A stretch of 64,000 nucleotides of DNA, taken from NCBI GenBank assembly GCA_964442285.1, contig CAYTZH010000002.1, positions 36,260 to 100,259 of the forward strand, written 5' to 3'. Below the pieces are notes generated by a model that made no database searches, was not told the DNA's origin, and saw only the letters and a list, made by a program, of their open reading frames with translations. Source of the stretch: an uncultured Spirochaetales bacterium. Its GTDB lineage: Bacteria > Myxococcota_A > UBA9160 > JAFDET01. This document shows, one piece after another, positions 8,930 through 48,091 of the stretch; position 1 is the stretch's first letter, and each line of letters starts with the position of its first letter. Position numbers and translations under genes: made by a program.

Positions 8930-9069
8930 CACCCCTCCACGCGGACCGCGGGAGTCCCTACCTTCGGCCGGGATCCGCCCTCGCTGAAGCCTCGATCTCC
9001 CCCGGGGAATCGGTCGGGGAGGCGCGAGGGCGGACGCACGGCGGGCTCGAGACGCCCGGGAGGGTCGGC

Positions 9070-18550: not shown

Positions 18551-19342
18551 TCAGCGCGCCCGGGTCAGCGGCTCGACGTCGGCCCAGACCGCCTCGCCGT
18601 TGCCGCGGAACACGCTCAGGACCGGCCCGGGGAGCCACTTCGCGACGGCGGTCTCGTAGGCGGGCAGGGCCTGCACCTGGGTGTACCACGCCGCCACCTG
18701 GGGCCGTGCCTCGATCGCGGGCGTGATGGCCAGGTGGTCGAGGCGCAGCACGTAGGGCAGCAGGGCCGCGTCGGCGAGCCCGAAGGCCTCGCCCGAGAGC
18801 CAGGCGCCCGGCGCGAGCGCCGCCTCCATCTCGTCGAGCAGACCGAGCATGGCGTGCAGGGCTCCGGCGAACTCCGGGGCCTTCACCCCGTGCTCGATCA
18901 CGCTCCGGCGCCCGGCCCGGCGCGCCGGGTCGGGGATGGCCTCGATGCTCGCTTCCCGCACCTCCGGCGGCTGCTGGAGCAGGAGCGGGCGCGGGCCGAT
19001 CGCGAAGGTCACGACGCCGGTTGCGGCGTGCACGCCGGTGTCGAGCTTCTTGGTCCACATGCGCCCGGCGTGGCGCCGCACCGGGTCGGCCGCGCGCATG
19101 GGCGGATCCGGGAAGGCGTCGTCCAGGTACTCGTTGATCAGCGTCGACTCGATCAGCACCGCGCCGTCGTGGACGAGGGTCGGCACCACGTGGTTGGGGT
19201 TCAGCTTGACGTACTCCGGGTCGTGCTGACCTCCGGCCAGCAGGTCGACCTCCCGGGACTCGAAGGGGAGCCCCTTGTGGTCGAGCACCAGCCGGACCTT
19301 CTGGGAGCAGGTGGAGACGGCGTTGTGGTAGAGGGCGAGCAT
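18551..19342 (-). CDS. Glutathione S-transferase
   Basis: MLALYHNAVSTCSQKVRLVLDHKGLPFESREVDL...VPTLVHDGAVLIESTLINEYL. The start overlaps the upstream stop (TGATG). Confidence 0.85.
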   Translation of the reverse strand: MLALYHNAVSTCSQKVRLVLDHKGLPFESREVDLLAGGQHDPEYVKLNPNHVVPTLVHDGAVLIESTLINEYLDDAFPDPPMRAADPVRRHAGRMWTKKLDTGVHAATGVVTFAIGPRPLLLQQPPEVREASIEAIPDPARRAGRRSVIEHGVKAPEFAGALHAMLGLLDEMEAALAPGAWLSGEAFGLADAALLPYVLRLDHLAITPAIEARPQVAAWYTQVQALPAYETAVAKWLPGPVLSVFRGNGEAVWADVEPLTRAR

Positions 19343-20271
19343 CAGCCGTTGCTCCGGTTCCAGCCGTCGACGATCTCCTGCATGTCCTCGGGCCGGAAGA
19401 AGAGCTCGGACTGCTGCCCGCTGCCGAAGACCGACCAGGAATGGCCCAGGTCCCAGTCCTCCTTCACCTCCCAGGCGTCGTCGTCCTCGATCACGTCCAT
19501 GTCGGTGAAGTGCTCGAAGAACGTGCCGCTCGGGTCCTTCAGGTACCAGAACATGTTGCCGCCGATCACGTGGCGCCCGGGGCCGTCCACCTGGACCTCC
19601 TCGCCGTGCTCGCGCCTGTAGACGCTGGCGGCCCGCATCACGGCGTCGAAGTCGTCGTACTCGAAGGCGTAGTGGTTGAGATAGGGCACGGGAGCCGGCG
19701 CCAGCAGGAAGTTGTGGTGGTCGCGGGAGCAGCGCAGGAAGTGGGCGATGCCGCCCACCACGTCCGAGGTGCGGAAGCCGAGGGCCTTGGCGAGCGCCAG
19801 GGACCTGGGGACCTCGTGGGTTCCGCACACGAAGTGGCCGAGGCGCCGGGGCGGACGCGGCCTGGCCTCCACCAGGACCTCGGCGCGCTGGTTCAGGCGG
19901 TCGCGACGGCCGGGCTTGTTCACCAGCCGCTCGGGCGCCAGGGACACGTCGTGGGGCGCGGCGGGCTCGACCCCGTAGACCCAGTGGTTGATCGGGTCGG
20001 GCACGCGCAGGCGTCCGCCGCCGATCTGGTACTTCACGCCGAGGGCGTCCAGGCGCCGGGCGGCTTCGACCAGGTCGGACTCGTCCGCGCAGCCCAGGCG
20101 GATCTCCCGCATCTGGCGGTAGGGGGCCTCCTCGATCCGGATCTGGCCGGGCAGGTCGCGGCTGCCCCAGACGCCGTCGCCCCCTTCGAGACCGATCTCG
20201 CGATAGAAGTCGTCGAGGACGGCGGGCTCGGGAACGCCGACGGTCATGCCGAGCAGTCGATGCAGTGCCAT
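19342..20271 (-). CDS. Two-domain VOC-superfamily ring-cleavage (extradiol/hydroquinone-type) dioxygenase
   Basis: About 309 aa with duplicated glyoxalase-like modules (LGHFVCGTHEV..., HHNFLLAP..., LNHYAFEY). AGGAGAG RBS. Confidence 0.75.
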   Translation of the reverse strand: MALHRLLGMTVGVPEPAVLDDFYREIGLEGGDGVWGSRDLPGQIRIEEAPYRQMREIRLGCADESDLVEAARRLDALGVKYQIGGGRLRVPDPINHWVYGVEPAAPHDVSLAPERLVNKPGRRDRLNQRAEVLVEARPRPPRRLGHFVCGTHEVPRSLALAKALGFRTSDVVGGIAHFLRCSRDHHNFLLAPAPVPYLNHYAFEYDDFDAVMRAASVYRREHGEEVQVDGPGRHVIGGNMFWYLKDPSGTFFEHFTDMDVIEDDDAWEVKEDWDLGHSWSVFGSGQQSELFFRPEDMQEIVDGWNRSNG

Positions 20272-20292
20272 GTTCTTCTCTCCTGTGTGGGT

Positions 20293-21840
20293 TCAGTGCA
20301 GGGTGGGCTCGCGGAGGGCGAGCTTGGACTCGAGGGAGGCGACGAGGCGGTCGAGGCTCCAGGCCCCGTCCACCACGCCGAAGACGTAGCGATCGGGGCG
20401 CACGATCGCGGCCGGATGGGACTCGAAGAGCTTGTCGAGCTCGTTCTCCACCACCGCCACGCCCTCGAGGGACACGCAGCGGGCGCCGATGCGGTCCAGG
20501 AAGCGGCGGCTCGCGTCGGACAGGGCGAGGTCGGCGTCGCTTCGGGCCAGCACGGCGAAGCCGCGGCCGAGCAGGGCGTCGAGGCGGCAGGGCGCGCCGC
20601 CGGGCGGGCACACCGTGGGCTGGCGGAGCAGGGTGCCGGTGGCGCTCCCGCCGCCCACCTGCTCCAGGGTGATCGCGCCGCCGTGCAGCGGCGGGGCGGT
20701 GCGTCCCTGGCCGTAGCCCGACGAGGAGTCGACCGCATGGGGCGGCGGCTTTCCGGCCTCCTGGGCCGCGAGGTTCTCCATCAGCTTGCCGATGGCGACG
20801 GCCCAGTCGACCAGGTCGTGGGCGTGGGCGTCGCGCTCCGCGGCGTAGGTGTCGAGCAGGGCGTCGCCGCAGGTGCCGTCGAGCACCCAGGGCAGCTTCC
20901 AGGCCAGGTTCACCACGTCGCGGAAGCCGGCGTTGAGGCCCTGGCCCAGGAATGGGGGCGTCTGGTGGGCGGCGTCGCCGGCCAGGAACACCCGGCCCGC
21001 CCGCCAGCGCTCCGCGGTGGCCGCGTGGAACTGGTAGACCGCGGTCCGGCGGAGGGCGTAGCGGTCGGCGGGCAGCCACTCGTCCAGCAGGGCGCGGATG
21101 CGCTCCGGCCGCAGCATCTCCTCCCGGGTCTCGCCGGGGTTCAGCTGGAACTCCCAGCGCCGGTTCGGGTCCTTCGCGCAGACGTAGGTGGCGAGCCGGG
21201 CGGGGTCGCAGACCTGCATGGTGAGGATCGGGAGGTCGCTCGGGTCCTCCACCACCACGTCGACCACGAGCCAGTCCTGGTCGTAGCCCAGGCTCTGCCA
21301 GGCAATGCCCAGGGAGCGACGCACGAAGCTGTTGGCCCCGTCGCAGGCGATCAGGTAGGCGGCGCTGAGCCGACGGGTTTCGCCGCTGGCAATGTCGCGG
21401 GTCTCGAGGAGCACCTCGTCTGCGCCCGGGTGGACGCCCGTCACCTCGTGGCCGAGGCGTAGCGCCGCCTTGCCCTGCTCCCGGATCATGCCGCGGAGGG
21501 TCCCCTCGAACTCGGGCTGGTCGAAGAGGTTCACGTCGCGATAGCCGTTGTGGCCCAGCCGCGGCACCGGCATGGTGAAGTAGGGCTCCCGCTTCGCGTT
21601 CGTGAACGCCACCGCGTCGCCCGCGCGGGGGGGCTGGAGGGTGGCGGCGATCTCCTCGCCGCGTCCCAGGCGCTGGAAGGCGCGCACGATCTCGCCGTCG
21701 ATGTTCACGGCGCGCGGGATCTCGACCACCCCGGTCTCGCGCTCCACCACGACCACCCGCAGTCCTGCGTCGGCGAGCAGGAAGGCGCCCATGGCGCCCA
21801 CCGGACCGAATCCCACGATGGCGACGTCGAAGTCCGGCAC
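20293..21840 (-). CDS. FAD-dependent aromatic-ring hydroxylase (MhpA/PcpB-like)
   Basis: DVAIVGFGPVGAMGAFLLADAGLRVVVVERE (GxGxxG), LAGDAAHQTPPFLGQGLNAGFRD. GTG start with GGAGGAG RBS. Confidence 0.85.
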   Translation of the reverse strand: MPDFDVAIVGFGPVGAMGAFLLADAGLRVVVVERETGVVEIPRAVNIDGEIVRAFQRLGRGEEIAATLQPPRAGDAVAFTNAKREPYFTMPVPRLGHNGYRDVNLFDQPEFEGTLRGMIREQGKAALRLGHEVTGVHPGADEVLLETRDIASGETRRLSAAYLIACDGANSFVRRSLGIAWQSLGYDQDWLVVDVVVEDPSDLPILTMQVCDPARLATYVCAKDPNRRWEFQLNPGETREEMLRPERIRALLDEWLPADRYALRRTAVYQFHAATAERWRAGRVFLAGDAAHQTPPFLGQGLNAGFRDVVNLAWKLPWVLDGTCGDALLDTYAAERDAHAHDLVDWAVAIGKLMENLAAQEAGKPPPHAVDSSSGYGQGRTAPPLHGGAITLEQVGGGSATGTLLRQPTVCPPGGAPCRLDALLGRGFAVLARSDADLALSDASRRFLDRIGARCVSLEGVAVVENELDKLFESHPAAIVRPDRYVFGVVDGAWSLDRLVASLESKLALREPTLH

Positions 21841-21849
21841 GGGCTCCTC

Positions 21850-22737
21850 CTAGGCGATCCGGGGGGTCGGGTCGGGCTCGTCGATCACCGCGTTGTCGAT
21901 CTCGCCGATGCCGTCGATGGCGACGCGGACCGTGTCGCCCGCCTTCAGCAGCCGGGGCGGCTTCATGGCGATCCCCACGCCGCCGGGCGTGCCGGTCGGG
22001 ATCACGTCGCCCGGCTCGAGGGTGAAGGCCGTGGAGAGGTGCTCGATCAGGAAGAAGCAGTCGAAGACCAGGTTCTTGGTGTTCGAGCTCTGGCGCAGCT
22101 CGCCGTTCACCCAGGTCTTGAGGTCGTGGCCGTGGGGGTCGCCGAACTCGTCCGCCGTCACGATCCACGGGCCCATGGGGCAGTGGGTGTCGAAGGACTT
22201 GCCCATGGTCCAGGTGGGCGTGCGCAGCTGCCAGTCCCGCACCGACACGTCGTTCACGATGGTGTAGCCGGCGATCACCTCGGCGGCGCGGTCACGGGGG
22301 ACGTGGCGACAGCGCTTGCCGACCACGATGCCCAGCTCGCCCTCGTAGTCGAGGGCGCCCGAGACCCGCGGCTTGTGGAAGGGCTCGTAGGGCGGGTGCG
22401 CCGAGGTGGACTGCTTGTTGAAGACCACCGGATGCTCGGGGATCTGGATCCCGCTCTCCTTGGCCTCCTCGATGTGGTCGCGGTAGTTGACCCCGATGGC
22501 CAGGATCTTCGGGGGGCGCAGGAGCGGCGACGCGAGCGTCACGTCCGAGAGGGCCACGCGGTGACCGCCCGCGGCGAGGGCGGTGCGGGCCGCCGCCAGG
22601 GCGGGATCGCCCGCCTCGAGGAAGGCGACCATCTCGGAGGGCAGCTCGGGGGCGGCGGTCGACAGGTCGACGACGGCTTCGCCGTCCACGACCCCGATGC
22701 GGGTGGCGCCGGCCTGGGTGAAGGTCACGAGCTTCAT
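21850..22737 (-). CDS. Fumarylacetoacetate hydrolase (FAH) family protein
   Basis: KILAIGVNYRDH...LDYEGELGIVVGK...IAGYTIVNDVSVRDWQ...PGDVIPTGTPGGVG. ATGA overlap with the TetR stop. Confidence 0.85.
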   Translation of the reverse strand: MKLVTFTQAGATRIGVVDGEAVVDLSTAAPELPSEMVAFLEAGDPALAAARTALAAGGHRVALSDVTLASPLLRPPKILAIGVNYRDHIEEAKESGIQIPEHPVVFNKQSTSAHPPYEPFHKPRVSGALDYEGELGIVVGKRCRHVPRDRAAEVIAGYTIVNDVSVRDWQLRTPTWTMGKSFDTHCPMGPWIVTADEFGDPHGHDLKTWVNGELRQSSNTKNLVFDCFFLIEHLSTAFTLEPGDVIPTGTPGGVGIAMKPPRLLKAGDTVRVAIDGIGEIDNAVIDEPDPTPRIA

Positions 22738-23414
22738 CGAGCATCTCCTCGTTCGGTGGGAGGCCCCAGGAACAGCGCGACCAGCGCGTCCGCGTGGGCC
22801 TCGATGATCTCCGGGTCGGCCGGATCGCGGCCGGTCAGGCGCCGGCACTCGGGCGCCTGGTGGAAGAGGTGGGTGGTGGCTCCCACGAGCACGTAGTGGA
22901 GGAGCATCGGGTCGATCCGGGTCGCGTGGGGGCCGCTCTCGGGGGCGAGCCCCGCCAGCCTCTCGATCGTCTCGAAGATCGGCCGCACGTGGTGATCCAC
23001 GATCCAGTGCATGCGCGGACCGTCGCGCTTGCCCTCGTCCGTCATCAGGCGGTGGAACTCGAGGTGGGTGGCGGCGAAGCGCACCAGGGCGCGGATCATC
23101 TCCTCGAGCAGCGCCGGCTCGAGCGGGCGCCCGGCCTCGGCGGCCTCGAGGGCGAAGCCCAGGCCGGATCGGATCTCGGAGAAGGCCCGGTTCACGGCCT
23201 CGCGCCAGAGGCCCTCCTTGGACCCGAAGTAGTAGGGGATGAGGCCCTGGTTCACGCGAGCGCGCGCGGCGATCTCCCGGGTGGAGGCGCCGTCGTAGCC
23301 GAGCTCCGAGAAGGCGGAGAGCGCCGCGTCGAGCATCCGCTCGCGCGTGGAGGCCTCGTCGGCCGGGGCCTGGGGGCGGGGGTGGCTGCGCGGGCGGTCC
23401 GCGGGCTGGGCCAT
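22734..23414 (-). CDS. TetR-family transcriptional regulator
   Basis: HTH region RERMLDAALSAFSELGYDGASTREIAARARVNQGLIPYYFGSKEGLW. Confidence 0.85.
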   Translation of the reverse strand: MAQPADRPRSHPRPQAPADEASTRERMLDAALSAFSELGYDGASTREIAARARVNQGLIPYYFGSKEGLWREAVNRAFSEIRSGLGFALEAAEAGRPLEPALLEEMIRALVRFAATHLEFHRLMTDEGKRDGPRMHWIVDHHVRPIFETIERLAGLAPESGPHATRIDPMLLHYVLVGATTHLFHQAPECRRLTGRDPADPEIIEAHADALVALFLGPPTERGDAR

Positions 23415-23434
23415 GGGTGTCCATCTCCCGGGCG

Positions 23435-23473
23435 TTGTTCAGCTGAACAAGGCCCATCTTATTCGATCGAATA
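23435..23473. promoter_or_regulatory. Two perfect palindromes in the TetR operon promoter region (candidate operators)
   Basis: TTGTTCAGCTGAACAA (23435..23450, 16 bp perfect) and TATTCGATCGAATA (23460..23473, 14 bp perfect), 21-60 bp upstream of the TetR ATG. Confidence 0.5.
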
Positions 23474-23548
23474 GGCACGTGCAAGCCCCCCTCGTCGGCT
23501 CTCTCACGAGCGCGCAGCGAGCGGGAAGAGTGGTGGTTCTACAGGGAC

Positions 23549-24730
23549 CTAGGTGGGTAGCACCGGCAGGCGCAGCCAGCCGCGCAGGATGCCGGTGGGA
23601 ATCCGGACGCCGCGCTCGGGGCAGACCCGGGCGTCCGCCAGCAGCGCGCCCAGGCACTCGAGGCCGACCCGCGCTTCGAGTCGCGCCAGGTGCGAGCCCA
23701 GGCAGAAGTGGATCCCGTGGCTGAAGGCCACGTGGTCGTTGGGGCGGCGGTCGAGGTCGAAGTCGTCGGGCCGCTCGAAGTGGCGGGGATCCCGGTTGGC
23801 CGCCGAGAACATCACCATCACCACGTCGCCCGCGCGGATCTTCTCCCCGCGGAGCTCCACGTCCTCCGTGGCGACCCGGGCCAGGGCGTTCACGGGAGAC
23901 TCGAGCCGCAGCAGCTCCTCGACCAGGGCCGGGATCCGTTCCGGCGTGTCGCGGACGAGGGCGAGCAGGTCGGGGCGGGCCTGCAGCACCAGGGCGGCGT
24001 TGGAGAGCAGGTTGGTGGTGGTCTCGTTTCCCGCCGTCCAGAGCAGCTGGCACAGGCCCACCAGCTCCTCGGCTGCCAGCGGGCTCTCGTCGCGCTCCGA
24101 GGCCTCGATCAGCGCCGAGAAGAGATCCTCGCGTCGATCGGTGCGGCGCTGCTCGATCAGGGCAGCGAGGGTGTCGTACATCTCCCGCATCACCCCCGGC
24201 GCGCTCGCGTCGGTGATCTCGGCCGCACCGGTGACGCTCGTCGTCGCGTTCCAGAGCCGCAGGCGGTCCCGGAGCGCTTCGGGGATCCCGAGGATCTCGG
24301 CGATGACGCCCACCGGGAAGGGGCTGGTGAAGGCGTGGACGAGGTCGACCTCCTCCCCGGCGGCGAGGCGCGCGCGAACGGCCTCGATCAGCGCCCCGGC
24401 GATCTCCCGGATCCGCGGCTCGCGGGTCGCCGTCACCCGCGGCGTGAAGGCCTTGGACAGGATGCGCCGGAGCCGGTCGTGGTGGGGCGGATCGTCCTGG
24501 ATCAGCGTCTGTCGCGGAAGGCCCACCTCCTCGGAGCGTCCGATCGGGCCGCCCTTCGACGAGAACCGCGCCGGGTCGTGGAGCACCGCGACCACGTCGT
24601 CGTAGCGGGTGATCGCCCAGAAGCGCTTCGCTGCGCACCAGTACACCGGCGCCTCGTCGCGCAGTCGCTGCCAGTGCGCGCGGGGCTCGGCCACGTAGCG
24701 CGGGTCGTCGAACGGGAGCAGGTCGTCCAT
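23549..24730 (-). CDS. Cytochrome P450
   Basis: Heme loop FSHGIHFCLGSHLARLE. ExxR motif (EELLRLESP). GAGGAGG RBS before the ATG at 24730. Confidence 0.9.
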   Translation of the reverse strand: MDDLLPFDDPRYVAEPRAHWQRLRDEAPVYWCAAKRFWAITRYDDVVAVLHDPARFSSKGGPIGRSEEVGLPRQTLIQDDPPHHDRLRRILSKAFTPRVTATREPRIREIAGALIEAVRARLAAGEEVDLVHAFTSPFPVGVIAEILGIPEALRDRLRLWNATTSVTGAAEITDASAPGVMREMYDTLAALIEQRRTDRREDLFSALIEASERDESPLAAEELVGLCQLLWTAGNETTTNLLSNAALVLQARPDLLALVRDTPERIPALVEELLRLESPVNALARVATEDVELRGEKIRAGDVVMVMFSAANRDPRHFERPDDFDLDRRPNDHVAFSHGIHFCLGSHLARLEARVGLECLGALLADARVCPERGVRIPTGILRGWLRLPVLPT

Positions 24731-24822
24731 CGGGCGCCTCCTCGTGCCCTGTGTGGACCGGATGCGCGCGGCTGTCAACGGTTTCGGGAGCGAGCCTCGG
24801 ATCGGTTCGGGAACCCGTCTAG

Positions 24823-25716
24823 CTAGGGGAGCGTCCGCAGGTAGGCGAAGAGGGCGCGCAGCTCGAGGTCGCTCATCTGGCCGTAGCGTGGCCAGGGCAT
24901 GAACTCGGGGTCGACGACCCGCCCGTCCGGCGCGATCCCCGTGCGCAGGCTGCGGACGAAGTCGGCCTCGGACCAGCCCCCGAGCGGGCCCGAGGCGGTG
25001 AGGTCCGGCGGGGGCGGCTCTCCCGGAAGGGAGAGGGGGTGGAGACCGCCCTCGAGGTCGGGCCGGTGGCAGACCCGGCAGATGCCGACGGCCACGAGGT
25101 ACTCCCCGTAGGCGGCATTCGCGGCGGGCTCCGGCCCGGGCGGGGGCGGCGTCGTGTGGTCGATGCGCTCCGCGGCCAGCAGGTCCGGCGCGAGGCCGCT
25201 GGCCAGGACGGCGCGGGTGAGCGGGCCCACGACCCGCTCCCGGGACGGACCGTCCACGGGGGGCACGCCGCGCAGCCAGGCGACGATGGCCGCCAGATCC
25301 TCGTCGCTGAGCGCGCGGAGCTGGTCCGAGGGCATCAAGGCCAGGGCGCGCCCATCCCGATCTACACCGTGGCGGATCGCGCGCGCCAGGTCCTCGTCAC
25401 GGTAGTCGGGCGGAAGGCCGCCGCGTCCCGAGGTGAGGTTCGGGGCCCACAGCCGCCCCACCCAGGGATCGTCCGCCAGCGAGCGACCGCCCAGGTCGTC
25501 CCCGTGGCAGAAGCTGCACTGGGCGATGGCCACGCCGAGGTGGCGGCCCCGGGCCAGCGTCTCCGCGTCGTGGACGACGGCGACCGAGAGGGCTCGCGTC
25601 GGGGTCGCGTAGATCCGCTCGAAGCGGAGCTCGCTGGCGCCGAAGACGGCGAGCGCCAGGAGCAGCAGCGCCGCGGAGGCGATCGACACGGCCCGGACGG
25701 CGCGGCGCGCGGTCAT
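24823..25716 (-). CDS. Membrane-anchored diheme c-type cytochrome
   Basis: Signal-anchor MTARRAVRAVSIASAALLLLALAVFG. Two CxxCH motifs (CSFCH, CRVCH). Starts 14 bp after the upstream gene's stop. Confidence 0.8.
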   Translation of the reverse strand: MTARRAVRAVSIASAALLLLALAVFGASELRFERIYATPTRALSVAVVHDAETLARGRHLGVAIAQCSFCHGDDLGGRSLADDPWVGRLWAPNLTSGRGGLPPDYRDEDLARAIRHGVDRDGRALALMPSDQLRALSDEDLAAIVAWLRGVPPVDGPSRERVVGPLTRAVLASGLAPDLLAAERIDHTTPPPPGPEPAANAAYGEYLVAVGICRVCHRPDLEGGLHPLSLPGEPPPPDLTASGPLGGWSEADFVRSLRTGIAPDGRVVDPEFMPWPRYGQMSDLELRALFAYLRTLP

Positions 25717-25730
25717 CGATCCCCGGGGCC

Positions 25731-28220
25731 TCAGGATCCGGTGCGAAGCTGCTGGATGGCGTCGAAGCTGTAGGGGTCGTCGGCGCGGACGTAGTAGACC
25801 CGCGCCGTGGGCCTCGCTCCGAAGCGGCGCTTCTCGAGCGGAGCTCCCATCCCGAAGAGCACGCGCGGGAGTCCCAGCGCCCGGGCCCGCAGCACCACGT
25901 GGCGCAGGCACTGGCGGTAGAGCCCGTGCGCGTGGACGTAGGCGTAGTCCAGGCCGATCACCATGGGGACGTAGCGGTCCTCGCCGACGAAGGAGGCCAC
26001 CACGGCGACGGGGGCGTCCGGCGCGCCGGGGAGGGCGCCGGGACGGACCCGCAGCGCCAGCAGCTCCCAGTCGGGGAACTCGAGCATGCGGGCGAACAGG
26101 TCCCGGGGGAGGGGGAAGGTGTTCAGTGCCAGGCTGCGACCCTGGACGTTGCGGTAGAGCGCGTAGAGGTGCGCGAGCTCGTCGGGGGTGGGGCGTCGGG
26201 ACCGGCCGTCCAGCACCTCGACCTCGTAGGTTCCGTTCCAGGGTTGTACGTGGCGACCGTGATGGCGCCGCAGATCTCGTGAGCCTGCCCGAAGGAACGC
26301 CTGCTCGTCGGGCCAAGTGCACTCGGCGACGAAGGTCTCGGGCGCGGGCAGTCGGGCGAAGCCCCGCTCCAGGAGCAGGGCGTCCATCTCGGGGTCGTCC
26401 GCCGGCAGGTCGCGGAGCACCAGGGTCTCGGCGCCGCGGGCCTCGGCATCGGCGTCGACGGCGGCGAGCAGGAGCGCCATCAGGTCCTTCCACTCGGACG
26501 ATCCGCCGCGCCGTGCGTCCGGGTGGAGGAAGAGGTGGTCTCCCTCAGTGAGGAGGGAGCCCATGGCGAAGGTGCGGTTGACCAGGAGGTGGGGATCCCG
26601 CGCGCGCAGCTGCTCCACCTGCCGGGACACGTCCGGCTCCGCGAGCATGTCGGCCTTCCACAGCGCATCGGTGAAGAACGTGGCGAGACGCGGTCGACCC
26701 TCGGCGTCGAGCACCCGGTAGTAGTGGAAGTGCCAGTCGTTCTCGGGCTCCGGGCGGTCGCGGAACGTCCGCTCCAGGAACCGGAGGCCCCCCCAGGTGA
26801 ACGATCCCCGTCCTCCGAGACGGGCGTTCCATTCGGCGGCGTCGATCTTCTCGATGGTGTCGGCCCGTTCGAGACGGAGTGCGGCGCCGCGGCGTCCGCG
26901 CCGCCGCTCGGCCCTTCCGGGCCGGGGGCGGGGATCGACGGTCCGCCGCCGGCCCCCGCCGGCGGGCGGGGGCAGACGCAGCGCGCTCCAGACGGACTCC
27001 GGCGTCTCTCCTTCCTCGGCGAGCACCGCATCGAAGCTGCGGGCGATGGCGTCCACCAGGCCGCGGATGTCCTCCTCGGTCTGGTGCAGGTTCAGGGAGA
27101 ACCGCACGCCCGACTTCTTGACGGCGACCGCCGGGAACTGGCCCGTGTTGACGTAGTACCCCTCGTCCATCAGCCGCAGGGCCATCTGCTGGGCCGCGCG
27201 GGTCGAGTACATGCCCACGAAGCGCACCGGCGAGTCGGGCGACGACGGCACCGGGAGGTCGACGGACGCCAGCAGGCGGCTGCAGTGGTCGAAGCGCGCC
27301 CGCAGGCGTCGCTGCAGGGCGTAGATCTCGTCGCTCAGATGGATGCGCGCCGAGGCGATGGCGGCGCCGAGCATCGGGGGCTGCAGCGGACCGGAGAAGA
27401 TCAGGGTGGCGCCGCAGTTCCGCACCCGCTGGCGGGTCGTCGCCTCCGCGAAGACCAGCGCGGCACCGCCGGCGCCGAAGGACTTGTTGAGGCTGGTGGC
27501 GACGACCATCCGGGGATGGAGCGGGACCCGGTCCAGGGCCACGCCGCGTCCGTGGCGGCCCTTCCAGCTCATGCCGTGGGCGTCGTCGACGTAGAGGCGC
27601 AGCTGCTCGTAGCGCTCGCCGAGCGCGGCGAGCTCCTCCAGGGGCGCCACGTCGCCGTACATGCTGTACACGCTGTCGAGCAGGTACCAGACGTGCCGGT
27701 GGTGGTGCCGCAGCTCGCGGATCCGCTCCTCCAGCAGATCCAGTCGGCTGTGTCGCACCAGCTCGACGTGGGTGCCGATGGGCTGGAGCTGGCGCGCCGC
27801 GAGCTGGACGCTGTTGTGGACCTGGTGGTCGAGGATCACCGCGTCCCGCTCGTCGACGAGCGCCGGGATCGCGGCCAGGTGGCCCAGGGTCGTGGACGGC
27901 GTCACGATCACCGGGGCCTCGAACACGGCGCCCAGCAGCCCCTCGAGCTCCTCGTACAGGGGCGCCGACACGTAGGCGCGCGAGGACGAGAACTGGGTTC
28001 CGAAGCGCTCGATGGCGTCGATCGCCCCCTGCTTCAGGCGGGGGTCGAGCTCGAGGCCCAGGTAGCTGCAGGACCCGAAGTGGACGAGGTCGCGACCGCC
28101 GAGGCGCAGGGTGCGCCCGGTCAAGCGCTCGTCTTCGGCCGTGAGATGCCCGAGGCCCAGGCGGACGGCCTCGGTGATCACGGCGTCGATGATCTCGAGC
28201 CGGTCGGCGTTCTGTCCCAC
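25731..28220 (-). CDS. Fusion protein: alpha-oxoamine synthase (BioF/Spt/Kbl-like, PLP) + C-terminal BioF2-like GNAT/FemAB-type acyltransferase domain
   Basis: N-terminal half: GSCSYLGL, DDAHGMSW, PLP-lysine region TSLNKSFGAGGA. Basic linker, then about 400 aa resembling the GNAT-like domain found with BioF2. GTG start at 28220 (GAGGGGA upstream) is chosen; the track ORF extends to 28457. Confidence 0.8.
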   Translation of the reverse strand: MGQNADRLEIIDAVITEAVRLGLGHLTAEDERLTGRTLRLGGRDLVHFGSCSYLGLELDPRLKQGAIDAIERFGTQFSSSRAYVSAPLYEELEGLLGAVFEAPVIVTPSTTLGHLAAIPALVDERDAVILDHQVHNSVQLAARQLQPIGTHVELVRHSRLDLLEERIRELRHHHRHVWYLLDSVYSMYGDVAPLEELAALGERYEQLRLYVDDAHGMSWKGRHGRGVALDRVPLHPRMVVATSLNKSFGAGGAALVFAEATTRQRVRNCGATLIFSGPLQPPMLGAAIASARIHLSDEIYALQRRLRARFDHCSRLLASVDLPVPSSPDSPVRFVGMYSTRAAQQMALRLMDEGYYVNTGQFPAVAVKKSGVRFSLNLHQTEEDIRGLVDAIARSFDAVLAEEGETPESVWSALRLPPPAGGGRRRTVDPRPRPGRAERRRGRRGAALRLERADTIEKIDAAEWNARLGGRGSFTWGGLRFLERTFRDRPEPENDWHFHYYRVLDAEGRPRLATFFTDALWKADMLAEPDVSRQVEQLRARDPHLLVNRTFAMGSLLTEGDHLFLHPDARRGGSSEWKDLMALLLAAVDADAEARGAETLVLRDLPADDPEMDALLLERGFARLPAPETFVAECTWPDEQAFLRAGSRDLRRHHGRHVQPWNGTYEVEVLDGRSRRPTPDELAHLYALYRNVQGRSLALNTFPLPRDLFARMLEFPDWELLALRVRPGALPGAPDAPVAVVASFVGEDRYVPMVIGLDYAYVHAHGLYRQCLRHVVLRARALGLPRVLFGMGAPLEKRRFGARPTARVYYVRADDPYSFDAIQQLRTGS

Positions 28221-28476
28221 GCTCGCAGGTCCCCTCGGCGGGCCGGTCGCTGTCGGCCCCGCTGCTGCGCTGTGGGGTTTTCCCCTTTGTTCGATCTTTC
28301 GGCAGGCGGCCGCCGCCAATTGAGGGCCGGACCGGGGCCGGAGCGCCTCCCGGCTCCTGCGGCCGTGACCCGGATCACTGGTCGACCGGCAGCCACGCCG
28401 TAACTTCGCCTTGTTTTCAGCGTTTCTTCGGGTGATCCTCGGGGCTCGACTCCCCATCCATGCACGCGAGGTTCCG

Positions 28477-29505
28477 ATGAACGAGGTCTCCTGCCTCTAC
28501 TTCGGCGGTGTTTTCGACGGACTTACGGTTCGAGGGATTCCCCACGAGCGCCTGGTCGATGGGCTGCCGGTCTCGCTCGACACGTTGCGCGGATTCCGGA
28601 AGCGGGTCGACTGGGATCTCTTCGTGCAGCTCAACGAGCGTCTGGAAGAGCTCTGCGGCGGCCCGGAAGAGCTGTTCGCCCTCGGACGCAACCACCTCCG
28701 GAGTGCGTCCAGCTTCGGGTTCATGCGGCTCGTCGCGCGCGTCTTCCGTCGGCCCCGAGACTTGTACTGGATGGGCACGGTCTGGTTCGGCCGCAGCCTG
28801 TTCTCGAATCTCGAGGACGAGTTCGAGGATCTGCCGGACGGGCGCATCCGGGAGGTCGTCCGGATCCCGGCGGCCTACCGCGATTGCCCGCAGATGTTCC
28901 ACCTGACCCACGGTGTGCTCACTGCAGTGCCGAAGCTGCTTCGCCATCCCGAGGCCGACGTCGAGATGAAGCTGGACGATCGGGAGGCGACCTACTTCAT
29001 CCGTCCGCCCGCCCAGGAGCGCTTCGCCCGGCGCAAGCTGGCCGCGCTCACCTCGCGCTTCTCGGCTTGGGAGCTCGTCGAGGCCATGAGCGAGCAGCAG
29101 GAGGAGCTGAAGCAGAGCTACCGGGAGCTCGGGGCGGCCCGCGAGCAGGTCGTCGCCCAGGCCCGCCAGCTCCAGCTCGTGCACCAGCTCGGCGAGGAGC
29201 TGAGCGCGCACGTGGGCGTCGACGCGCTCACCGACGGTCTGGCCGACGTCTTCGCGCGACATCTGCCCGACCACCGCATCGCCCTGTGGCTGCGCTCGCG
29301 GGAAGGGGAGGACGAGACGCTCCTGCGACCGGCCGCCGCGTCGGCGCCGCCGGATCGGACCTATCCGCTGAAGACGGGGAGCGGCCCGGTGGGCCGCCTC
29401 GAGGTCTGGGGCGGGCAGGTGTCGGACCGGGACGAGCTGCTCGAGGGGCTCGTGCCGTGGATCGCCCTGGCGCTCGACAACGCCCGCAGCCACGCGAGGG
29501 GGTGA
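28477..29505 (+). CDS. Hypothetical sensor-like protein with coiled coil and C-terminal GAF-like domain
   Basis: ATG at 28477. Central coiled coil (SEQQEELKQSYRELGAAREQVVAQARQLQL). The end, PVGRLEVWGG...LLEGLVPWIALALDNARSHA, is typical of a GAF C-terminus. Confidence 0.6.
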   Translation: MNEVSCLYFGGVFDGLTVRGIPHERLVDGLPVSLDTLRGFRKRVDWDLFVQLNERLEELCGGPEELFALGRNHLRSASSFGFMRLVARVFRRPRDLYWMGTVWFGRSLFSNLEDEFEDLPDGRIREVVRIPAAYRDCPQMFHLTHGVLTAVPKLLRHPEADVEMKLDDREATYFIRPPAQERFARRKLAALTSRFSAWELVEAMSEQQEELKQSYRELGAAREQVVAQARQLQLVHQLGEELSAHVGVDALTDGLADVFARHLPDHRIALWLRSREGEDETLLRPAAASAPPDRTYPLKTGSGPVGRLEVWGGQVSDRDELLEGLVPWIALALDNARSHARG

Positions 29506-29529
29506 CACCGACCCGCGCCCGGCGGCGGC

Positions 29530-30183
29530 TCAGGGGAAGCGCGGGCGCGGGGGCCGCGGCGGGCGGTAGGGCCGATAGGGCCGGCCCGGGTAGTACGGCC
29601 GCGGTGCGTAGCCGGGGACCGGCACGGGGACGACCTCGGTGTGGGTCTCGGCGCGGGGGTCGGGCACCCGCGCAATCGGGACGAGCGAGGCCTGGACCGT
29701 GAGGGTCTCGTTCGGCGGGAGATCCACCTCCTGGGCGAAGGGCGTGTAGCCCGGGCGCTCCACCCGGACGACGTGGGGCCCGGACGGCACCTCGTGTGCC
29801 TGGGGGCTCGAGGGACCCACGGGCGTGTCGTCGATCCAGACCGTGTCGCCCGAGACGTTGGAGCGCACGATCAGGTATCCGGCCAGGCCCAGGAGCTCCA
29901 CCTGCAGGACGGTCGGGCGATCCGCGCTCACCTCGATCTCCGCTGACCAGGGCTGATAGCCCTCCGCCTTCACCTCCACGGTGTGCGGCCCCGCCTCGAG
30001 CTCGAAGCCGTCGGGGCCCACGGCGCCGGTGGCGACGCCGTCGACGAAGACCTGTGCGCTGGGCTCCTCGCTGAGGACGACCACGTGGCCGCGCTCCGTA
30101 CACGCCAGCACGAGCAGGGCGACCAGGCCCGCAGCCAGCAGGCGCCGCTGCCGAGCGTCGAGACGGCGAGAGGTGGCTTCCAT
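29530..30183 (-). CDS. PEGA-domain protein with Pro/Arg/Tyr-rich tail
   Basis: Two PEGA-like repeats (VFVDGVATG...LEAGPHTVEVKAEGYQPW; VWIDDTPVG...VPSGPHVVRVERPGYTPF). Membrane anchor LLAAGLVALLVLAC. Confidence 0.75.
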   Translation of the reverse strand: MEATSRRLDARQRRLLAAGLVALLVLACTERGHVVVLSEEPSAQVFVDGVATGAVGPDGFELEAGPHTVEVKAEGYQPWSAEIEVSADRPTVLQVELLGLAGYLIVRSNVSGDTVWIDDTPVGPSSPQAHEVPSGPHVVRVERPGYTPFAQEVDLPPNETLTVQASLVPIARVPDPRAETHTEVVPVPVPGYAPRPYYPGRPYRPYRPPRPPRPRFP

Positions 30184-30344
30184 GACACCGAACGCTACCC
30201 GAAGCGCGGGACCGGCAACAGAGCGGCAGCCATATGGAGCGCCAATCCCATCGCGGGCGGGGCGGGGAGGGCAATTCGCGGCACACCTCCGCGGGCGCCG
30301 GGCGTAGACTGGAGCGACCCCCCGCCACCTCACGGAGGAGCGTC

Positions 30345-33212
30345 GTGCAGCACCGAAACCGCCTGAGTCGGATCGCCCTGCTCGTGGCCGCGGGCGTCGC
30401 CGCCCTGCAGCTCGGCATGACCTGCAACCAGAATCCCCGGCCCGGGCTGGGGGCCCAGCTCTTCACCAGCCCCCAGGCCAATCCGATCGCCCTGTCCAAC
30501 GACGGCCAGGTCCTCTACGTGGCCAACACCACCGCCGGCACCCTCACCCTCTTCGACGCCAATCCGCCCTTCGCCCCGCTCGCCATCATCCCGGTGGGGC
30601 TCGACCCGGTCGGGATCGCCGTGAAGCCCAAGGCCCAGCCGAGCGATCCGGAGATCCTGCTCGTCACCAACCACATCTCGGACACGATCTCGGTGGTGGA
30701 CGCGGGGCAGCGAGCCGTGATCCAGACCCTCCAGGAGCTGGATGGCAGCGGCGTGAGCCTGACCGACGAGCCCGTGGGCGTGGCCTTTGACGGGCCCACC
30801 CGGGCCTTCGTGACCCTGGACAACCCCAACCAGGTACTGGCGCTCACGATCGACGCCGCCGGGAACGCGGCGCTCTCCGAGGACCGGGCCACGTTGACCG
30901 CCCAGGCGCCCCGCGCCCTCACCGTGTCGGGCGGCCGGGTCTTCGTCGCCGCGTTCGAGTCGGGCAACCAGAGCGAGTTCAACTCCTGCGGCCCCGGCGG
31001 CGGCCCCGCCTACGACCCGAACGGCCACGGCGGCGATGGCACCGGCTGCGAGTTCCCGCTCAACTTCGGCACGCTGGTGGCGTTCGCCACGAGCCCGAAC
31101 ATCGGGGGCGAGGTCGTGCACAACGGGCTGATTCCCGACCGCGACCTCTTCGTGTACGACGCCGCGGACTTCTTCGACGCCGACGGGAGCGCCGAATCGG
31201 TCCAGCCCGTGGACGTCGTGGAAGGGTTGGGCACGCTGCTCTACGGCGTGGCCGCCGTGGGCGACACGGTCTTCGTCACCAACACCGAGGCCCGGAACAA
31301 GAAGGACGGGCTGGATGCCCTGGCGAACCGGATGTTCGAGAACCGGCTCTCGGTCGTCTCCTGCCCGGGCGGGGCCTGCGGCGCGCCCCTCGTGGTGGAC
31401 CTCGAGTCCGGGGCCGCCAACCCCTTCGGCGTGCCCGTGCCCACGCCCTACGGCGTGCGGGCGGCCGTCGACGGCCAGGTGCTCGTGGCGAGCGTGGCGG
31501 GCTCGGACGGCGTTCCGGCGGACGCGGGCGACCCGAGCACCGTCGACGTGGACATTCCCGGACTCGTGACCCTCGATGCGGCGGGCAACGTCCTGGGCCA
31601 CGTCCAGACCGGGGCGATTCCCCAGGGCGTGGCGTTGGCGTCGGACGGGCTCGGCGCGGCCCAGACGGCCTTCGTCCTGAACACGGTCGGCAACACCGTC
31701 TCCGTGGTGGACGTCTCGAATCCGGCGGCGCCGTCGGTGACCGCCAGCTTCTCCGCCGGCGGCGACCCCACGCCGGCCAGCGTGCGCGAGGGGCGCATCG
31801 CCTTCAGCTCCGCCCGGGCCTCCACGAGCGGCACGTTCTCCTGCGAGTCGTGCCATCCGAACGGCAACATCGATCACATCGACTGGACCATCAACACGAC
31901 CCTCGGTCCCCAGGACGCCTGCGGCGGCGGCGTGGTGTGTCCCGAGCCGCGCTCCACCATGCCGATCCGCGGGCTGCGCAACACGCTGCCGCTGCACTGG
32001 GCCGGCAACCTGGCCGACCCTTTCGCGGGGGTCGGCGTCGGCGCCCCGGAGGACCCGGTCGCGCCCGACTGCGACCTGGACGTGGACGGCGAGGTGGGCT
32101 GCATCCGTCACCTGGTGGACGCGAGCCTCTCGGGCGTGATGTGTGCGCAGAGCCCGAGCTGCGCGGCCGGACCCACCCTGCTTCCGGGCGCCCTCGACGC
32201 GGGCGAGCGCGACGCCATGGCGGCGTTCCTGGCTGCGGTGGCCTTCCCGCCGAGTCCGGAGCGGCGTCCCAGCGACGTGCTCTCGGCGTCGGCGGCCGTG
32301 GGCGTGAACGACTTCTTCCTGAACAATGGCTCGATCCTGGGAGGCGGCTGTGCCAGCGACGAGAGCGGCTGTCACGCGCTCCCGCTCACGGTGTCCACCA
32401 ACTCGCCGGTCGTGGGCGGCTTCGACGCGCCCTCGATCCGCGGGCTCTGGGACCGGCACATCACCTTCTCGAACGGGCTGACCAGCTCCTACGACAACCT
32501 GGCGGAGTCCGGGTTCGACCCGGCAACGACGGGCATGAGCGAGTTCGGCTCCCTGGCCGCGACCTTCCCCGGCTTGTTCACGCTGGCCTACAGCGTCCCG
32601 GTCACCAACATCTGGGCGCTGATCAACGAGATGAGCGTGGGCCTGCCCGGCCTCACCGGACGCCAGCTCGACCTGACCCCGACCAACGCGGCCGACGCCG
32701 GGGTCGGGGCCTCGCTCGCCCAGATCGAGGCCATGGCGGACGAGGGGCGCATCACCGCGGCGGCGGCCGCCATGGGCGTGAACCACCGTTTCGACCCGGC
32801 GAGCGGTCTCTGGGTGCCCGCGCGCGGCGCGAGCCTCACCACCGCGGAGCTTCGCGACCTGGCCGTGACCAGCGGCCGGACGATCGTGGTGACCGCGCAG
32901 CTTCCCCAGGGCATGTCGATCGGAGGCGCCGACCGCCAGCCGCTGCTCTGGGCGGACGACCTGCCCAACGCGACCGGGGGGTCGCCCACGATCACCGTGG
33001 ACGCCCAGTACGTGGAGGCCTCGGCGGCGGTGCTCGTGGACGGGGTGCGCTGCGCCGGCTGCGGCCTGGCGCTCGGGGCCGACACCGTGGACATCACCCT
33101 GAGCCCGCTGCCGTCGAACGGGCTGCACGTGGTCCAGGTCCACAACCCGGACAGCTACGCCAGCAACGAGCTGCCGGTGTGCGTGAACGGCGGCTGCAAC
33201 GCCGGCTTCTAG
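30345..33212 (+). CDS. Large lipoprotein: YVTN-type beta-propeller + single CxxCH heme motif region + IPT/TIG-like C-terminus
   Basis: GGAGGA RBS with a GTG start. Lipobox-like LQLGMTC. Repeats LYVANTTAGTLTLFD, LVTNHISDTISVVD, VLNTVGNTVSVVDVS. FSCESCHPNGNIDHIDW. Confidence 0.75.
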   Translation: MQHRNRLSRIALLVAAGVAALQLGMTCNQNPRPGLGAQLFTSPQANPIALSNDGQVLYVANTTAGTLTLFDANPPFAPLAIIPVGLDPVGIAVKPKAQPSDPEILLVTNHISDTISVVDAGQRAVIQTLQELDGSGVSLTDEPVGVAFDGPTRAFVTLDNPNQVLALTIDAAGNAALSEDRATLTAQAPRALTVSGGRVFVAAFESGNQSEFNSCGPGGGPAYDPNGHGGDGTGCEFPLNFGTLVAFATSPNIGGEVVHNGLIPDRDLFVYDAADFFDADGSAESVQPVDVVEGLGTLLYGVAAVGDTVFVTNTEARNKKDGLDALANRMFENRLSVVSCPGGACGAPLVVDLESGAANPFGVPVPTPYGVRAAVDGQVLVASVAGSDGVPADAGDPSTVDVDIPGLVTLDAAGNVLGHVQTGAIPQGVALASDGLGAAQTAFVLNTVGNTVSVVDVSNPAAPSVTASFSAGGDPTPASVREGRIAFSSARASTSGTFSCESCHPNGNIDHIDWTINTTLGPQDACGGGVVCPEPRSTMPIRGLRNTLPLHWAGNLADPFAGVGVGAPEDPVAPDCDLDVDGEVGCIRHLVDASLSGVMCAQSPSCAAGPTLLPGALDAGERDAMAAFLAAVAFPPSPERRPSDVLSASAAVGVNDFFLNNGSILGGGCASDESGCHALPLTVSTNSPVVGGFDAPSIRGLWDRHITFSNGLTSSYDNLAESGFDPATTGMSEFGSLAATFPGLFTLAYSVPVTNIWALINEMSVGLPGLTGRQLDLTPTNAADAGVGASLAQIEAMADEGRITAAAAAMGVNHRFDPASGLWVPARGASLTTAELRDLAVTSGRTIVVTAQLPQGMSIGGADRQPLLWADDLPNATGGSPTITVDAQYVEASAAVLVDGVRCAGCGLALGADTVDITLSPLPSNGLHVVQVHNPDSYASNELPVCVNGGCNAGF

Positions 33213-46247: not shown

Positions 46248-46259
46248 AGGCTATAGCCT
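46248..46259. promoter_or_regulatory. 12-bp perfect palindrome upstream of the betaine-synthesis genes
   Basis: AGGCTATAGCCT lies about 90 bp upstream of the ATG at 46350. It overlaps a weak TTGCAC...TATAGC promoter-like pair. Confidence 0.3.
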
Positions 46260-46349
46260 GAGGCTTCCCCTGATCATTACCTGCTCGACTGCCGTGGCGG
46301 CCCGAGAAGCCGTCCGAGTCGTCGCGCCCTGCTCTGCCTGGGAGGCTCC

Positions 46350-47235
<886 letters not shown>

Positions 47236-47243
<8 letters not shown>

Positions 47244-48081: not shown

Positions 48082-48091
48082 GCGGTTCCCC

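Follow-up and report, generated by a model that had tools for sequence, protein, structure and literature searches.

A sensor gene divergent from an alpha-oxoamine synthase/tandem-GNAT fusion and a cytochrome c gene: a conserved module of Myxococcota that may encode a signal synthase and its receptor

The window, a stretch of 64,000 nucleotides from an uncultured bacterium (GenBank assembly GCA_964442285.1, contig CAYTZH010000002.1, forward-strand positions 36,260 to 100,259), carries on its minus strand a gene for a fusion protein in which an alpha-oxoamine synthase (AOS) domain, a pyridoxal phosphate (PLP) enzyme, is joined to a tandem-GNAT acyl- or aminoacyl-transferase domain. A gene for a dihaem cytochrome c, predicted to be exported, follows it, and a gene for a stand-alone sensor diverges from it; the comparison with related loci pointed to these three genes as a conserved unit. 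On the basis of gene context and predicted folds, the fusion was interpreted, with a probability of about one half, as the synthase of a small molecule to which the sensor binds. An earlier note, made from the letters of this DNA alone, had described the fusion, the cytochrome, a cytochrome P450 and a GAF-like sensor as an odd operon context. The four genes, their coordinates and the gaps between them were all found as it had reported them: 14 bp separate the fusion from the cytochrome c gene, 92 bp the latter from the P450 gene, and the divergent region, with its T-rich patches, spans 256 bp.

The window has a G+C content of 72%, which made the raw lists of open reading frames (ORFs) noisy, and the true frames were picked by the G+C content of the third codon position (GC3); this analysis backed every gene of the locus as coding. 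The fusion gene (25731-28220, minus strand) encodes 829 amino acids from a GTG start at 28220 to a stop codon at 25731, and the same call was obtained on four independent Logan contigs, which matched the window at 99.8-99.9% identity across the module. Its AOS domain, of PLP fold-type I, is encoded by positions 27030-28172 on the minus strand (residues 17-397; PF00155), and its C-terminal tandem-GNAT domain, which is Fem/MprF-like, by positions 25731-26903 including the stop codon (minus strand, residues 440-829; PF13480). These two Pfam matches bear out the AOS-acyltransferase fusion that had been read from the letters. The cytochrome gene (24823-25716, minus strand) encodes 297 amino acids with two PF13442/PF00034 domains. 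On the other side, the divergent intergenic region (28221-28476) separates the fusion operon from the sensor gene (28477-29505, plus strand; 342 amino acids) and presumably carries the promoters of both. Neither a sigma-70 consensus match nor a credible terminator was found in this region, and the sigma-70 and terminator scan of positions 22500-30500 gave nothing that exceeded the shuffled expectation, its sole terminator-like match falling within the sensor coding region. An Rfam scan detected no riboswitch or other RNA family, the divergent region included. When eleven divergent intergenic regions were aligned, no common operator was found, and the conserved blocks were confined to the closest relatives (L085 and L086; related loci are numbered with an L).

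The neighbourhood was compared by tblastn of the window proteins against 80 loci with relatives of the fusion, drawn from one-genome-per-species contigs, and ten further loci reached via individual homologues. The complete triad of sensor, fusion and cytochrome c was found in 13 other loci of the Myxococcota type (L005, L007, L025, L029, L049, L069 and L085-L091). The pair of fusion and cytochrome was found in 15 (the same 13 plus L018 and L044, both on contigs cut off upstream). Across these 15 loci the cytochrome gene lay immediately downstream of the fusion gene, and in the 13 with the full triad the sensor gene lay immediately upstream of it, at identities of 45-72% for the fusion and 48-69% for the cytochrome. 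A 4-bp overlap of the fusion stop and the cytochrome start was frequent (in the called genes of L087-L089 and L091, and in our own ORF calls of L029, L049 and L069), and in L085, L086 and L090 the two genes were 9-40 bp apart (39 bp in L090). This recurrence upholds the fusion-cytochrome operon of the earlier note. The best named homologues came from metagenome-assembled genomes (MAGs) of Myxococcota or Myxococcales.

An independent test gave the same picture. Four cytochrome homologues on long contigs (47-52% identity), chosen by cytochrome similarity alone, all directly followed a fusion of 803-813 amino acids, which in turn faced a histidine kinase of 617-709 amino acids; the 4-bp overlap was present in three of them, and the fourth (L090) had the 39-bp gap. 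Since all four loci carried the fusion, this cytochrome subfamily appears from its gene neighbourhoods to be dedicated to the fusion in Myxococcota. A sensor homologue upstream of the fusion, with no cytochrome c found, was observed in four loci (L010, L021, L040 and L041), although the contig of L010 ends 2 bp past the fusion gene and its downstream side is not assessable. These comparisons indicated that the co-occurrence of sensor, fusion and cytochrome c exceeds chance and that the adjacency of the P450 does not. The five-gene neighbourhood whose conservation the earlier note had proposed to test did not recur in the relatives; as judged from these loci, the conserved unit consists of three genes, a sensor gene divergent from a fusion-cytochrome c operon. 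In several Myxococcota module loci, sigma-54-dependent and LuxR-type response regulators were also encoded within a few kilobases (L087, 11370-14581; L090, 56-1471 and 8139-8783), with LuxR-type regulators detected in L005 by ORF clustering only; these regulators are candidates for downstream signalling partners.

The N-terminal half of the fusion was assigned to the AOS superfamily (BioF/Kbl/Spt/ALAS) by its PF00155 match (E 5e-21), and His135, Asp212/Asp213, His215 and the Schiff-base Lys246 were invariant in 21 homologues and lined up with the motifs of Alb29 and of Spt, the serine palmitoyltransferase. The closest solved relative was Alb29 (8xha), with 148 bits over residues 17-385, and the serine palmitoyltransferases scored about 92 bits. 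Alb29, from the albogrisin biosynthesis of Streptomyces albogriseolus, shares the DDAHG/DEAHS and SLNK motifs with the fusion. Unlike the fusion, it is a stand-alone protein of about 400 amino acids from a natural-product cluster, without a GNAT domain, sensor or cytochrome partner. It condenses L-glutamate with acyl-CoAs (PMC11906848). The domain fell far below the cut-offs of all three NCBIfam Spt equivalogs (NF047599, 133.5 against 500 bits; NF047600, 124.2 against 640; NF047603, 101.4 against 670), of BioF (TIGR00858, 155.8 against 426.45 bits) and of the autoinducer synthases (NF005526, 63.1 against 428 bits; CqsA structures matched at E 1e-6 only), and also under those for Kbl and ALAS. 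Its best NCBIfam model was the uncharacterised subfamily PRK07505 (257.6 bits, cut-off 342). By these curated cut-offs, the fusion is predicted to be a member of the AOS superfamily outside the Spt, BioF, Kbl, ALAS and CqsA families.

The C-terminal domain had a single Pfam match, PF13480 (Acetyltransf_6, E 6e-10), with no match to the FemAB family and none to any NCBIfam model even at E<=10. Its 390 residues were modelled by AlphaFold2 with 50 homologues, across which 27 residues were invariant, and a tandem-GNAT fold was obtained with high confidence (predicted local distance difference test score, pLDDT, 94.6; predicted template modelling score, pTM, 0.91). The Foldseek matches of this model were FemX (E 2e-11; template modelling score, TM, 0.56-0.66), the aminoacyl-tRNA-dependent peptide synthases Sbb17 and Sba18 and the aminoacyl-phosphatidylglycerol synthase domains of MprF. 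The tandem GNATs VipF and MAB_4324 and N-myristoyltransferase were also among them, the acyl-CoA-dependent ones (VipF and N-myristoyltransferase) ranking lower down. The solved folds closest to this model are aminoacyl-tRNA-dependent transferases, and the donor may be an acyl-CoA or an aminoacyl-tRNA. An AOS-type PLP enzyme requires a free amino group on its substrate. For this reason, the AOS step should precede the N-acylation, with the GNAT domain modifying the new aminoketone, and the fusion probably makes an N-acylated aminoketone.

The cytochrome was recognised as a class-I dihaem protein with His/Met ligation, because both CXXCH motifs (CSFCH and CRVCH), Met128-Pro129 and Met273-Pro274-Trp275 were conserved in 25 homologues. 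Two further conserved loops, NLT.GRGG and GGLHPL..PGEP.PP, were specific to this subfamily. Its N-terminus, inspected by eye, shows a positive n-region, a hydrophobic stretch and VFGA/SE, which would fit either a Sec signal peptide or a signal anchor. The dihaem part of the "membrane-anchored diheme cytochrome" described earlier was therefore confirmed, and the anchor may instead be a cleaved signal peptide. Among solved structures it was best matched by haem domains from the cytochrome subunits of the fructose, glucose and alcohol dehydrogenases (E 8e-20 to 1e-8), and the likeness to these membrane-bound flavoprotein or PQQ (pyrroloquinoline quinone) dehydrogenases lies in the class-I His/Met haem domains. 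The dehydrogenase subunits carry three haems, have 440-490 amino acids and are encoded together with their dehydrogenase, whereas the module cytochrome has two haems in 297 amino acids, its own invariant loops and no dehydrogenase gene beside it in any of the 16 loci.

The sensor had no match to Pfam or NCBIfam models, GAF included, even at E<=10, and no sequence-level match among solved structures. Its AlphaFold2 model, built with 23 sequences (pLDDT 82.9), consisted of a helical/beta domain (residues 1-180), a coiled-coil helix of 58 residues (186-243) and a small alpha/beta domain (248-341). For the first of these, all of the top 16 Foldseek matches in the PDB were either H-NOX domains or guanylate cyclase with an H-NOX domain (E values of 4e-5 to 6e-4; TM of 0.55-0.64 for stand-alone targets). 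The last domain, in which a four-stranded sheet lies between a first and a C-terminal helix, is GAF-like, with PDE5A GAF and 3k2n (GAF) appearing only as weaker matches. The coiled-coil/GAF-like ligand sensor proposed earlier was thus broadly right as to the coiled coil and the sensor architecture; a Pfam GAF match was lacking, and the model adds an H-NOX-like domain at the N-terminus.

Residues 1-180 share with the H-NOX sensors the predicted fold and, in relatives, the coupling to histidine kinases. They differ from them in that a conserved His is lacking throughout these residues, the helix that bears the H-NOX proximal His included, the YxSxR motif is missing and Pfam HNOB was not matched at E<=10; the window sensor also adds the coiled coil and the GAF-like domain and is tied to the AOS-GNAT gene. 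At the place of the haem-propionate motif YxSxR the sensor reads YRDCP (residues 134-138), in which Cys137-Pro138, nearly invariant, bears what we take to be a resemblance to the haem-regulatory Cys-Pro motif. Because the proximal His and YxSxR are absent, canonical haem binding is unlikely, and the domain was treated as a haem-less H-NOX-like pocket.

The window sensor ends after its GAF-like domain, without HisKA, HATPase_c or a DNA-binding output. In most Myxococcota loci, the same residues, about 340, formed the N-terminus of HisKA-HATPase histidine kinases of 616-877 amino acids, and both HisKA and HATPase_c were present in the relatives L025, L029, L087-L089 and L091. A recently truncated kinase pseudogene was considered for the window and rejected, as the stand-alone form of about 350 residues was kept in 16 relatives at 49-72% identity. 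The close clade has 341-362 amino acids, and its distant relatives add PAS, HisKA or a LuxR-type helix-turn-helix (HTH). One input module joined to a histidine kinase, to PAS, to LuxR-HTH or to no output behaves as is typical of a ligand-binding input domain.

The idea that this sensor always travels with the fusion was also examined and rejected, since two paralogues with PAS output (P0138 and P0140) lay in unrelated contexts; the sensor family is not exclusive to the fusion enzyme. The PAS-bearing paralogues were located next to a nitroreductase gene (L171, 6001-7410) and next to a glycosyltransferase gene and a gene with a guanylate-cyclase domain (L172, 6001-7404), with no fusion in either locus.

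The linkage of the fusion to signalling genes extended far beyond Myxococcota. In a wider survey, all ORFs of the 80 loci were clustered and the representatives scanned against Pfam. The fusion family gave 1991 matches among 8000 scored candidates, with relatives in at least 571 species genomes. Its hosts were Myxococcota, Bacteroidota (Chitinophagales and Cytophagales), Actinomycetota (Solirubrobacteraceae, Geodermatophilaceae, Dactylosporangium and one Mycobacterium) and a MAG labelled as cyanobacterial. Within 1 kb of the fusion, 59 kinase ORFs were counted; the distal flanks had 0.024 per kb. In Myxococcota, the H-NOX-like kinase or sensor was found within 1 kb in 10 of 12 loci, the remaining two being cut off upstream. 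All 48 Bacteroidota loci had DUF7793 (PF25056) and/or a PAS-HisKA_3 kinase within 1 kb, many of them with a LuxR-type response regulator in addition. One to seven tandem copies of DUF7793, each of about 130 amino acids, stood directly beside the fusion in 47 of these loci (L023-L084; e.g., L058, 7438-9889, and L081, 6576-9828). In the profile-profile comparison, DUF7793 was unrelated to the Myxococcota sensor, and its only PDB match was the uncharacterised 3bl4.

Signalling genes were also found near the fusion in 11 of 13 Actinomycetota loci. In the Solirubrobacteraceae (8/8; L009, L011, L012, L015, L016, L017, L020 and L022) the fusion faces a gene of about 750 codons for a PAS-GGDEF-EAL protein of cyclic di-GMP (c-di-GMP) turnover, at 60-89% identity and at about positions 7650-9925 in each locus with full flanks; GAF-PAS or hybrid kinases were encoded nearby in L039, L055 and L078. 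The partners of the fusion in these other phyla were thus PAS, GAF or DUF7793 proteins, and the cytochrome was missing. The synthase alone was constant across lineages, and the sensor differed between them in type and in output (kinase, c-di-GMP enzymes, HTH or none). In Mycobacterium angelicum (L056, 2085-15100), the fusion gene was observed between genes of the polyketide synthase type, with an ORF of 2174 amino acids upstream and a protein with KS, AT and ACP (acyl carrier protein) domains downstream, which suggests its use in a natural-product pathway.

Soluble sensors that differ between lineages around one conserved enzyme are the hallmark of a synthase paired with its receptor, and on these grounds the reading of the fusion as a synthase of the ligand of its neighbouring sensor was given even odds. 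As far as the domain families indicate, the AOS domain would join an amino acid to an acyl thioester in a decarboxylative condensation that gives an alpha-aminoketone, and the Fem-like tandem-GNAT domain would then acylate or aminoacylate the new amine. The product would be an N-acyl aminoketone, of which an N-aminoacyl version could cyclise and oxidise to a pyrazinone; N-aminoacyl aminoketones can react in this way, as in the signals DPO and AI-3. This small hydrophobic product may be the ligand of the divergently encoded sensor, which in most relatives would drive a histidine kinase and in the clade of the window, as a stand-alone protein, would act through a partner protein. The cytochrome c, translationally coupled to the fusion in several relatives, might act, directly or in a supporting role, in a periplasmic oxidation or reduction of the exported product, or might link the making of the product to the respiratory chain; no other part of the proposed mechanism is as weak. 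A precedent for such a periplasmic redox step is offered by Caulobacter, in which the periplasmic CerR follows the cytoplasmic Spt and the bacterial ceramide synthase bCerS, also cytoplasmic (PMC11087976). Binding of the product by the sensor was favoured over regulation of the enzyme gene by the sensor, as GGDEF-EAL and output-less sensors should be unable to regulate transcription alone. The make-oxidise-sense scheme suggested by the earlier note was in this way strengthened in its making and sensing parts by the linkage to PAS, GAF and H-NOX-like sensors across phyla, and its P450 oxidation step was dropped.

Further precedents are the AOS-type autoinducer synthases with sensor kinases, CqsA/CqsS of Vibrio and LqsA/LqsS/LqsR of Legionella, where an AOS-family PLP enzyme is encoded beside a sensor kinase and the product is a small hydrophobic ketone-bearing signal. 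In its genomic coupling of a synthase gene to a sensor gene, the module agrees with these systems. It differs from them in the extra tandem-GNAT domain of 390 amino acids and in its soluble H-NOX-like, PAS or GAF sensors, as opposed to the membrane-integral receptors of the CqsS type; the dihaem cytochrome c, obligatory in the operon in Myxococcota, is found on the module side only.

Several points weigh against a synthase-receptor pair. The proposal is built wholly on gene context and predicted folds, and neither the amino-acid and acyl substrates nor the donor of the GNAT domain (acyl-CoA or aminoacyl-tRNA) can be derived from them, Alb29 being just a distant relative. The stand-alone sensor of the window clade lacks a recognised output. 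No fusion gene adjoins the PAS-output paralogues P0138 and P0140 (32-36% identity), and two Actinomycetota loci have no signalling neighbour, those of M. angelicum (L056) and of Blastococcus (L072, beside an AMP-binding enzyme). Furthermore, a class-I His/Met dihaem cytochrome is normally an electron carrier rather than a catalyst, and no dehydrogenase partner is encoded nearby.

A bolder version of the synthase-receptor proposal is put forward tentatively, as possible though rather less than probable. The fusion would be the synthase of a widespread, unrecognised group of signals, N-acyl or N-aminoacyl aminoketones (the latter possibly giving pyrazinones like DPO and AI-3), for which each lineage would have its own cytoplasmic receptor. 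These would be the H-NOX-like kinases in Myxococcota, DUF7793 with PAS kinases in Bacteroidota and PAS-GGDEF-EAL proteins in Solirubrobacteraceae, and in Myxococcota the cytochrome c would oxidise or process the signal.

The alternative that survived best is a ceramide-like amino-lipid of the envelope, which we hold to be unlikely. Here the AOS domain would act as Spt and the GNAT domain as bCerS, giving an oxidised N-acyl long-chain base that would be flipped to the periplasm for a cytochrome-supported redox step, and the sensors would merely regulate. The enzyme bCerS is of the GNAT type, some bacteria fuse Spt and bCerS, and both Myxococcota and Bacteroidota include sphingolipid producers. 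Serine palmitoyltransferases were also among the solved relatives of the AOS domain, and the fused activities follow the bacterial order of Spt, bCerS and then the periplasmic CerR (PMC11087976; PMC11324152). Ceramide synthesis in Caulobacter begins in the cytoplasm with Spt and bCerS, the latter described just as an acyltransferase, and the redox enzyme CerR resides in the periplasm (PMC11087976). A periplasm-facing cytochrome beside a cytoplasmic PLP enzyme is accordingly a less odd mix of compartments than had been claimed, and the likeness to the module would lie in an AOS condensation and an N-acylation in the cytoplasm followed by a periplasmic redox step, the last being proposed for the module.

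The module departs from that pathway in the fusion of its two cytoplasmic activities, in its cytochrome c partner as against an NAD(P)-dependent reductase, and in its tie to sensor genes. The AOS domain stays far under all three NCBIfam Spt cut-offs and is much closer to Alb29 (148 bits) than to Spt (about 92 bits), and the folds nearest to that of the GNAT domain belong to aminoacyl-tRNA-dependent transferases. No conserved gene for a CerR-like reductase, an acyl carrier protein or an acyl-ACP synthetase was found beside the fusion. Moreover, the fusion is partnered by soluble sensors, some of which could not regulate transcription through their outputs (GGDEF-EAL or none).

The domain layout of the fusion is reminiscent of that of BioF2 of M. 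tuberculosis, which has an extra domain of the GNAT type. This protein (Rv0032) is an uncharacterised AOS whose extra domain is N-terminal, which does not act as BioF and which is reported to be restricted to the M. tuberculosis complex; a 2026 review tentatively calls it a serine palmitoyltransferase, which lends some support to the ceramide-like alternative (PMC12910592). In the fusion, by comparison, the GNAT domain is C-terminal, the family spans at least four phyla and sensor genes are linked to it, a linkage that is not described for BioF2.

A redox- or gas-responsive module was judged improbable. In that case the H-NOX-like domain would bind haem or a redox cofactor, sense O2, NO or the redox state, and control, or be co-regulated with, the cytochrome and the enzyme, the product being an adaptive metabolite and not a ligand. 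The H-NOX fold of the sensor, the c-type cytochrome as a fixed operon partner in Myxococcota and the near-invariant Cys137-Pro138 at the place of YxSxR are in its favour, and H-NOX proteins classically partner histidine kinases. Nevertheless, the proximal His, YxSxR and an HNOB match are all absent, and the other phyla pair the enzyme with PAS, GAF or DUF7793 and no cytochrome, so that the common denominator is the enzyme and not the redox proteins.

Finally, a single operon of fusion, cytochrome c and P450 that would make an amino-lipid and then hydroxylate it, the cytochrome serving the P450, was considered highly improbable and, on comparative genomics, largely refuted: the three genes share a strand with short gaps and no terminator detected between them, but none of the 15 related module loci has the P450, and its orthologues on 16 other contigs never lie near module genes and share no neighbour. 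In addition, a cytoplasmic P450 is out of reach for reduction by an exported cytochrome c, and bacteria often have solitary P450 genes with no ferredoxin gene beside them.

In the full-text literature searched, which left most subscription journals outside its coverage, no description of the AOS/GNAT fusion family, of DUF7793 or of the sensor linkage was found; no described precedent was found either for a cytoplasmic PLP enzyme that is obligatorily paired with a cytochrome c of the exported kind. We rate the module as a new variation on a signal-synthase/receptor module or on an AOS-plus-N-acyltransferase lipid pathway, with a cytochrome c partner that is unprecedented. Small-molecule signalling is poorly understood in Myxococcota, Bacteroidota and Actinomycetota, and if the enzyme makes the ligand of the neighbouring sensors, hundreds of species in these phyla would carry a new family of chemical signalling systems. 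A function would then be gained for the large fusion family, for DUF7793 and for a haem-less H-NOX-like sensor domain; the fusion might also illuminate BioF2 of M. tuberculosis. The pairing of a PLP enzyme with an exported cytochrome could indicate an unusual periplasmic redox maturation step. Under the ceramide-like alternative, a fused enzyme of the Spt/bCerS type with a cytochrome would be a new form of bacterial amino-lipid synthesis.

The P450 gene itself (23549-24730, minus strand; 393 amino acids, outside the conserved module) was assigned by PF00067 (E 4e-32) and by the motif FSHGIHFCLG, which fits the FxxGxHxCxG loop of the Cys ligand of haem-thiolate proteins. As the earlier note had it, no ferredoxin or ferredoxin reductase gene adjoins it, the flanking gaps being just 92 and 134 bp. 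A P450 gene followed the cytochrome in none of the 15 related module loci, and the only one within 10 kb (L041, 35% identity) was 2.5 kb off on the opposite strand. A metagenome scan gave 16 contigs with P450 orthologues (69-77% identity). Neither a module gene (fusion, cytochrome or sensor) nor the TetR cluster described below was present on any of them, and the only ORF clusters common to these contigs overlapped the P450 itself, so that no conserved neighbours were found.

Downstream of the P450, positions 18551-23414 on the minus strand hold tightly packed genes for TetR, a protein of the FAA-hydrolase family, a flavin adenine dinucleotide (FAD) monooxygenase, a protein of glyoxalase fold and a glutathione S-transferase (GST), a run that looks like a ring-cleavage cluster of the gentisate/homogentisate type. 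This TetR-controlled cluster was absent from the related loci. A unit of P450 and TetR cluster was also considered and is unsupported, the P450 orthologues having no conserved neighbours. From these comparisons, the P450 and the ring-cleavage genes appear to be unrelated neighbours of the module.

Additionally, two minor observations were made in the window. A stretch of 676 bp (29496-30171), which includes most of a minus-strand gene for a PEGA-domain lipoprotein (stop at 29530, ATG near 30183, lipobox LVLAC), was replaced by 37 bp in Logan contigs (L001, 3759-3795, and L003) that were otherwise 99-99.9% identical. The start codon of the lipoprotein was kept, and the final codons of the sensor gene were altered (342 against 348 amino acids); a strain-level deletion and an assembly collapse are the two possible causes. 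Further away, positions 46257-49663 on the plus strand encode two S-adenosylmethionine (SAM)-dependent methyltransferases followed by a transporter of the BCCT family, possibly for the synthesis and uptake of glycine betaine.

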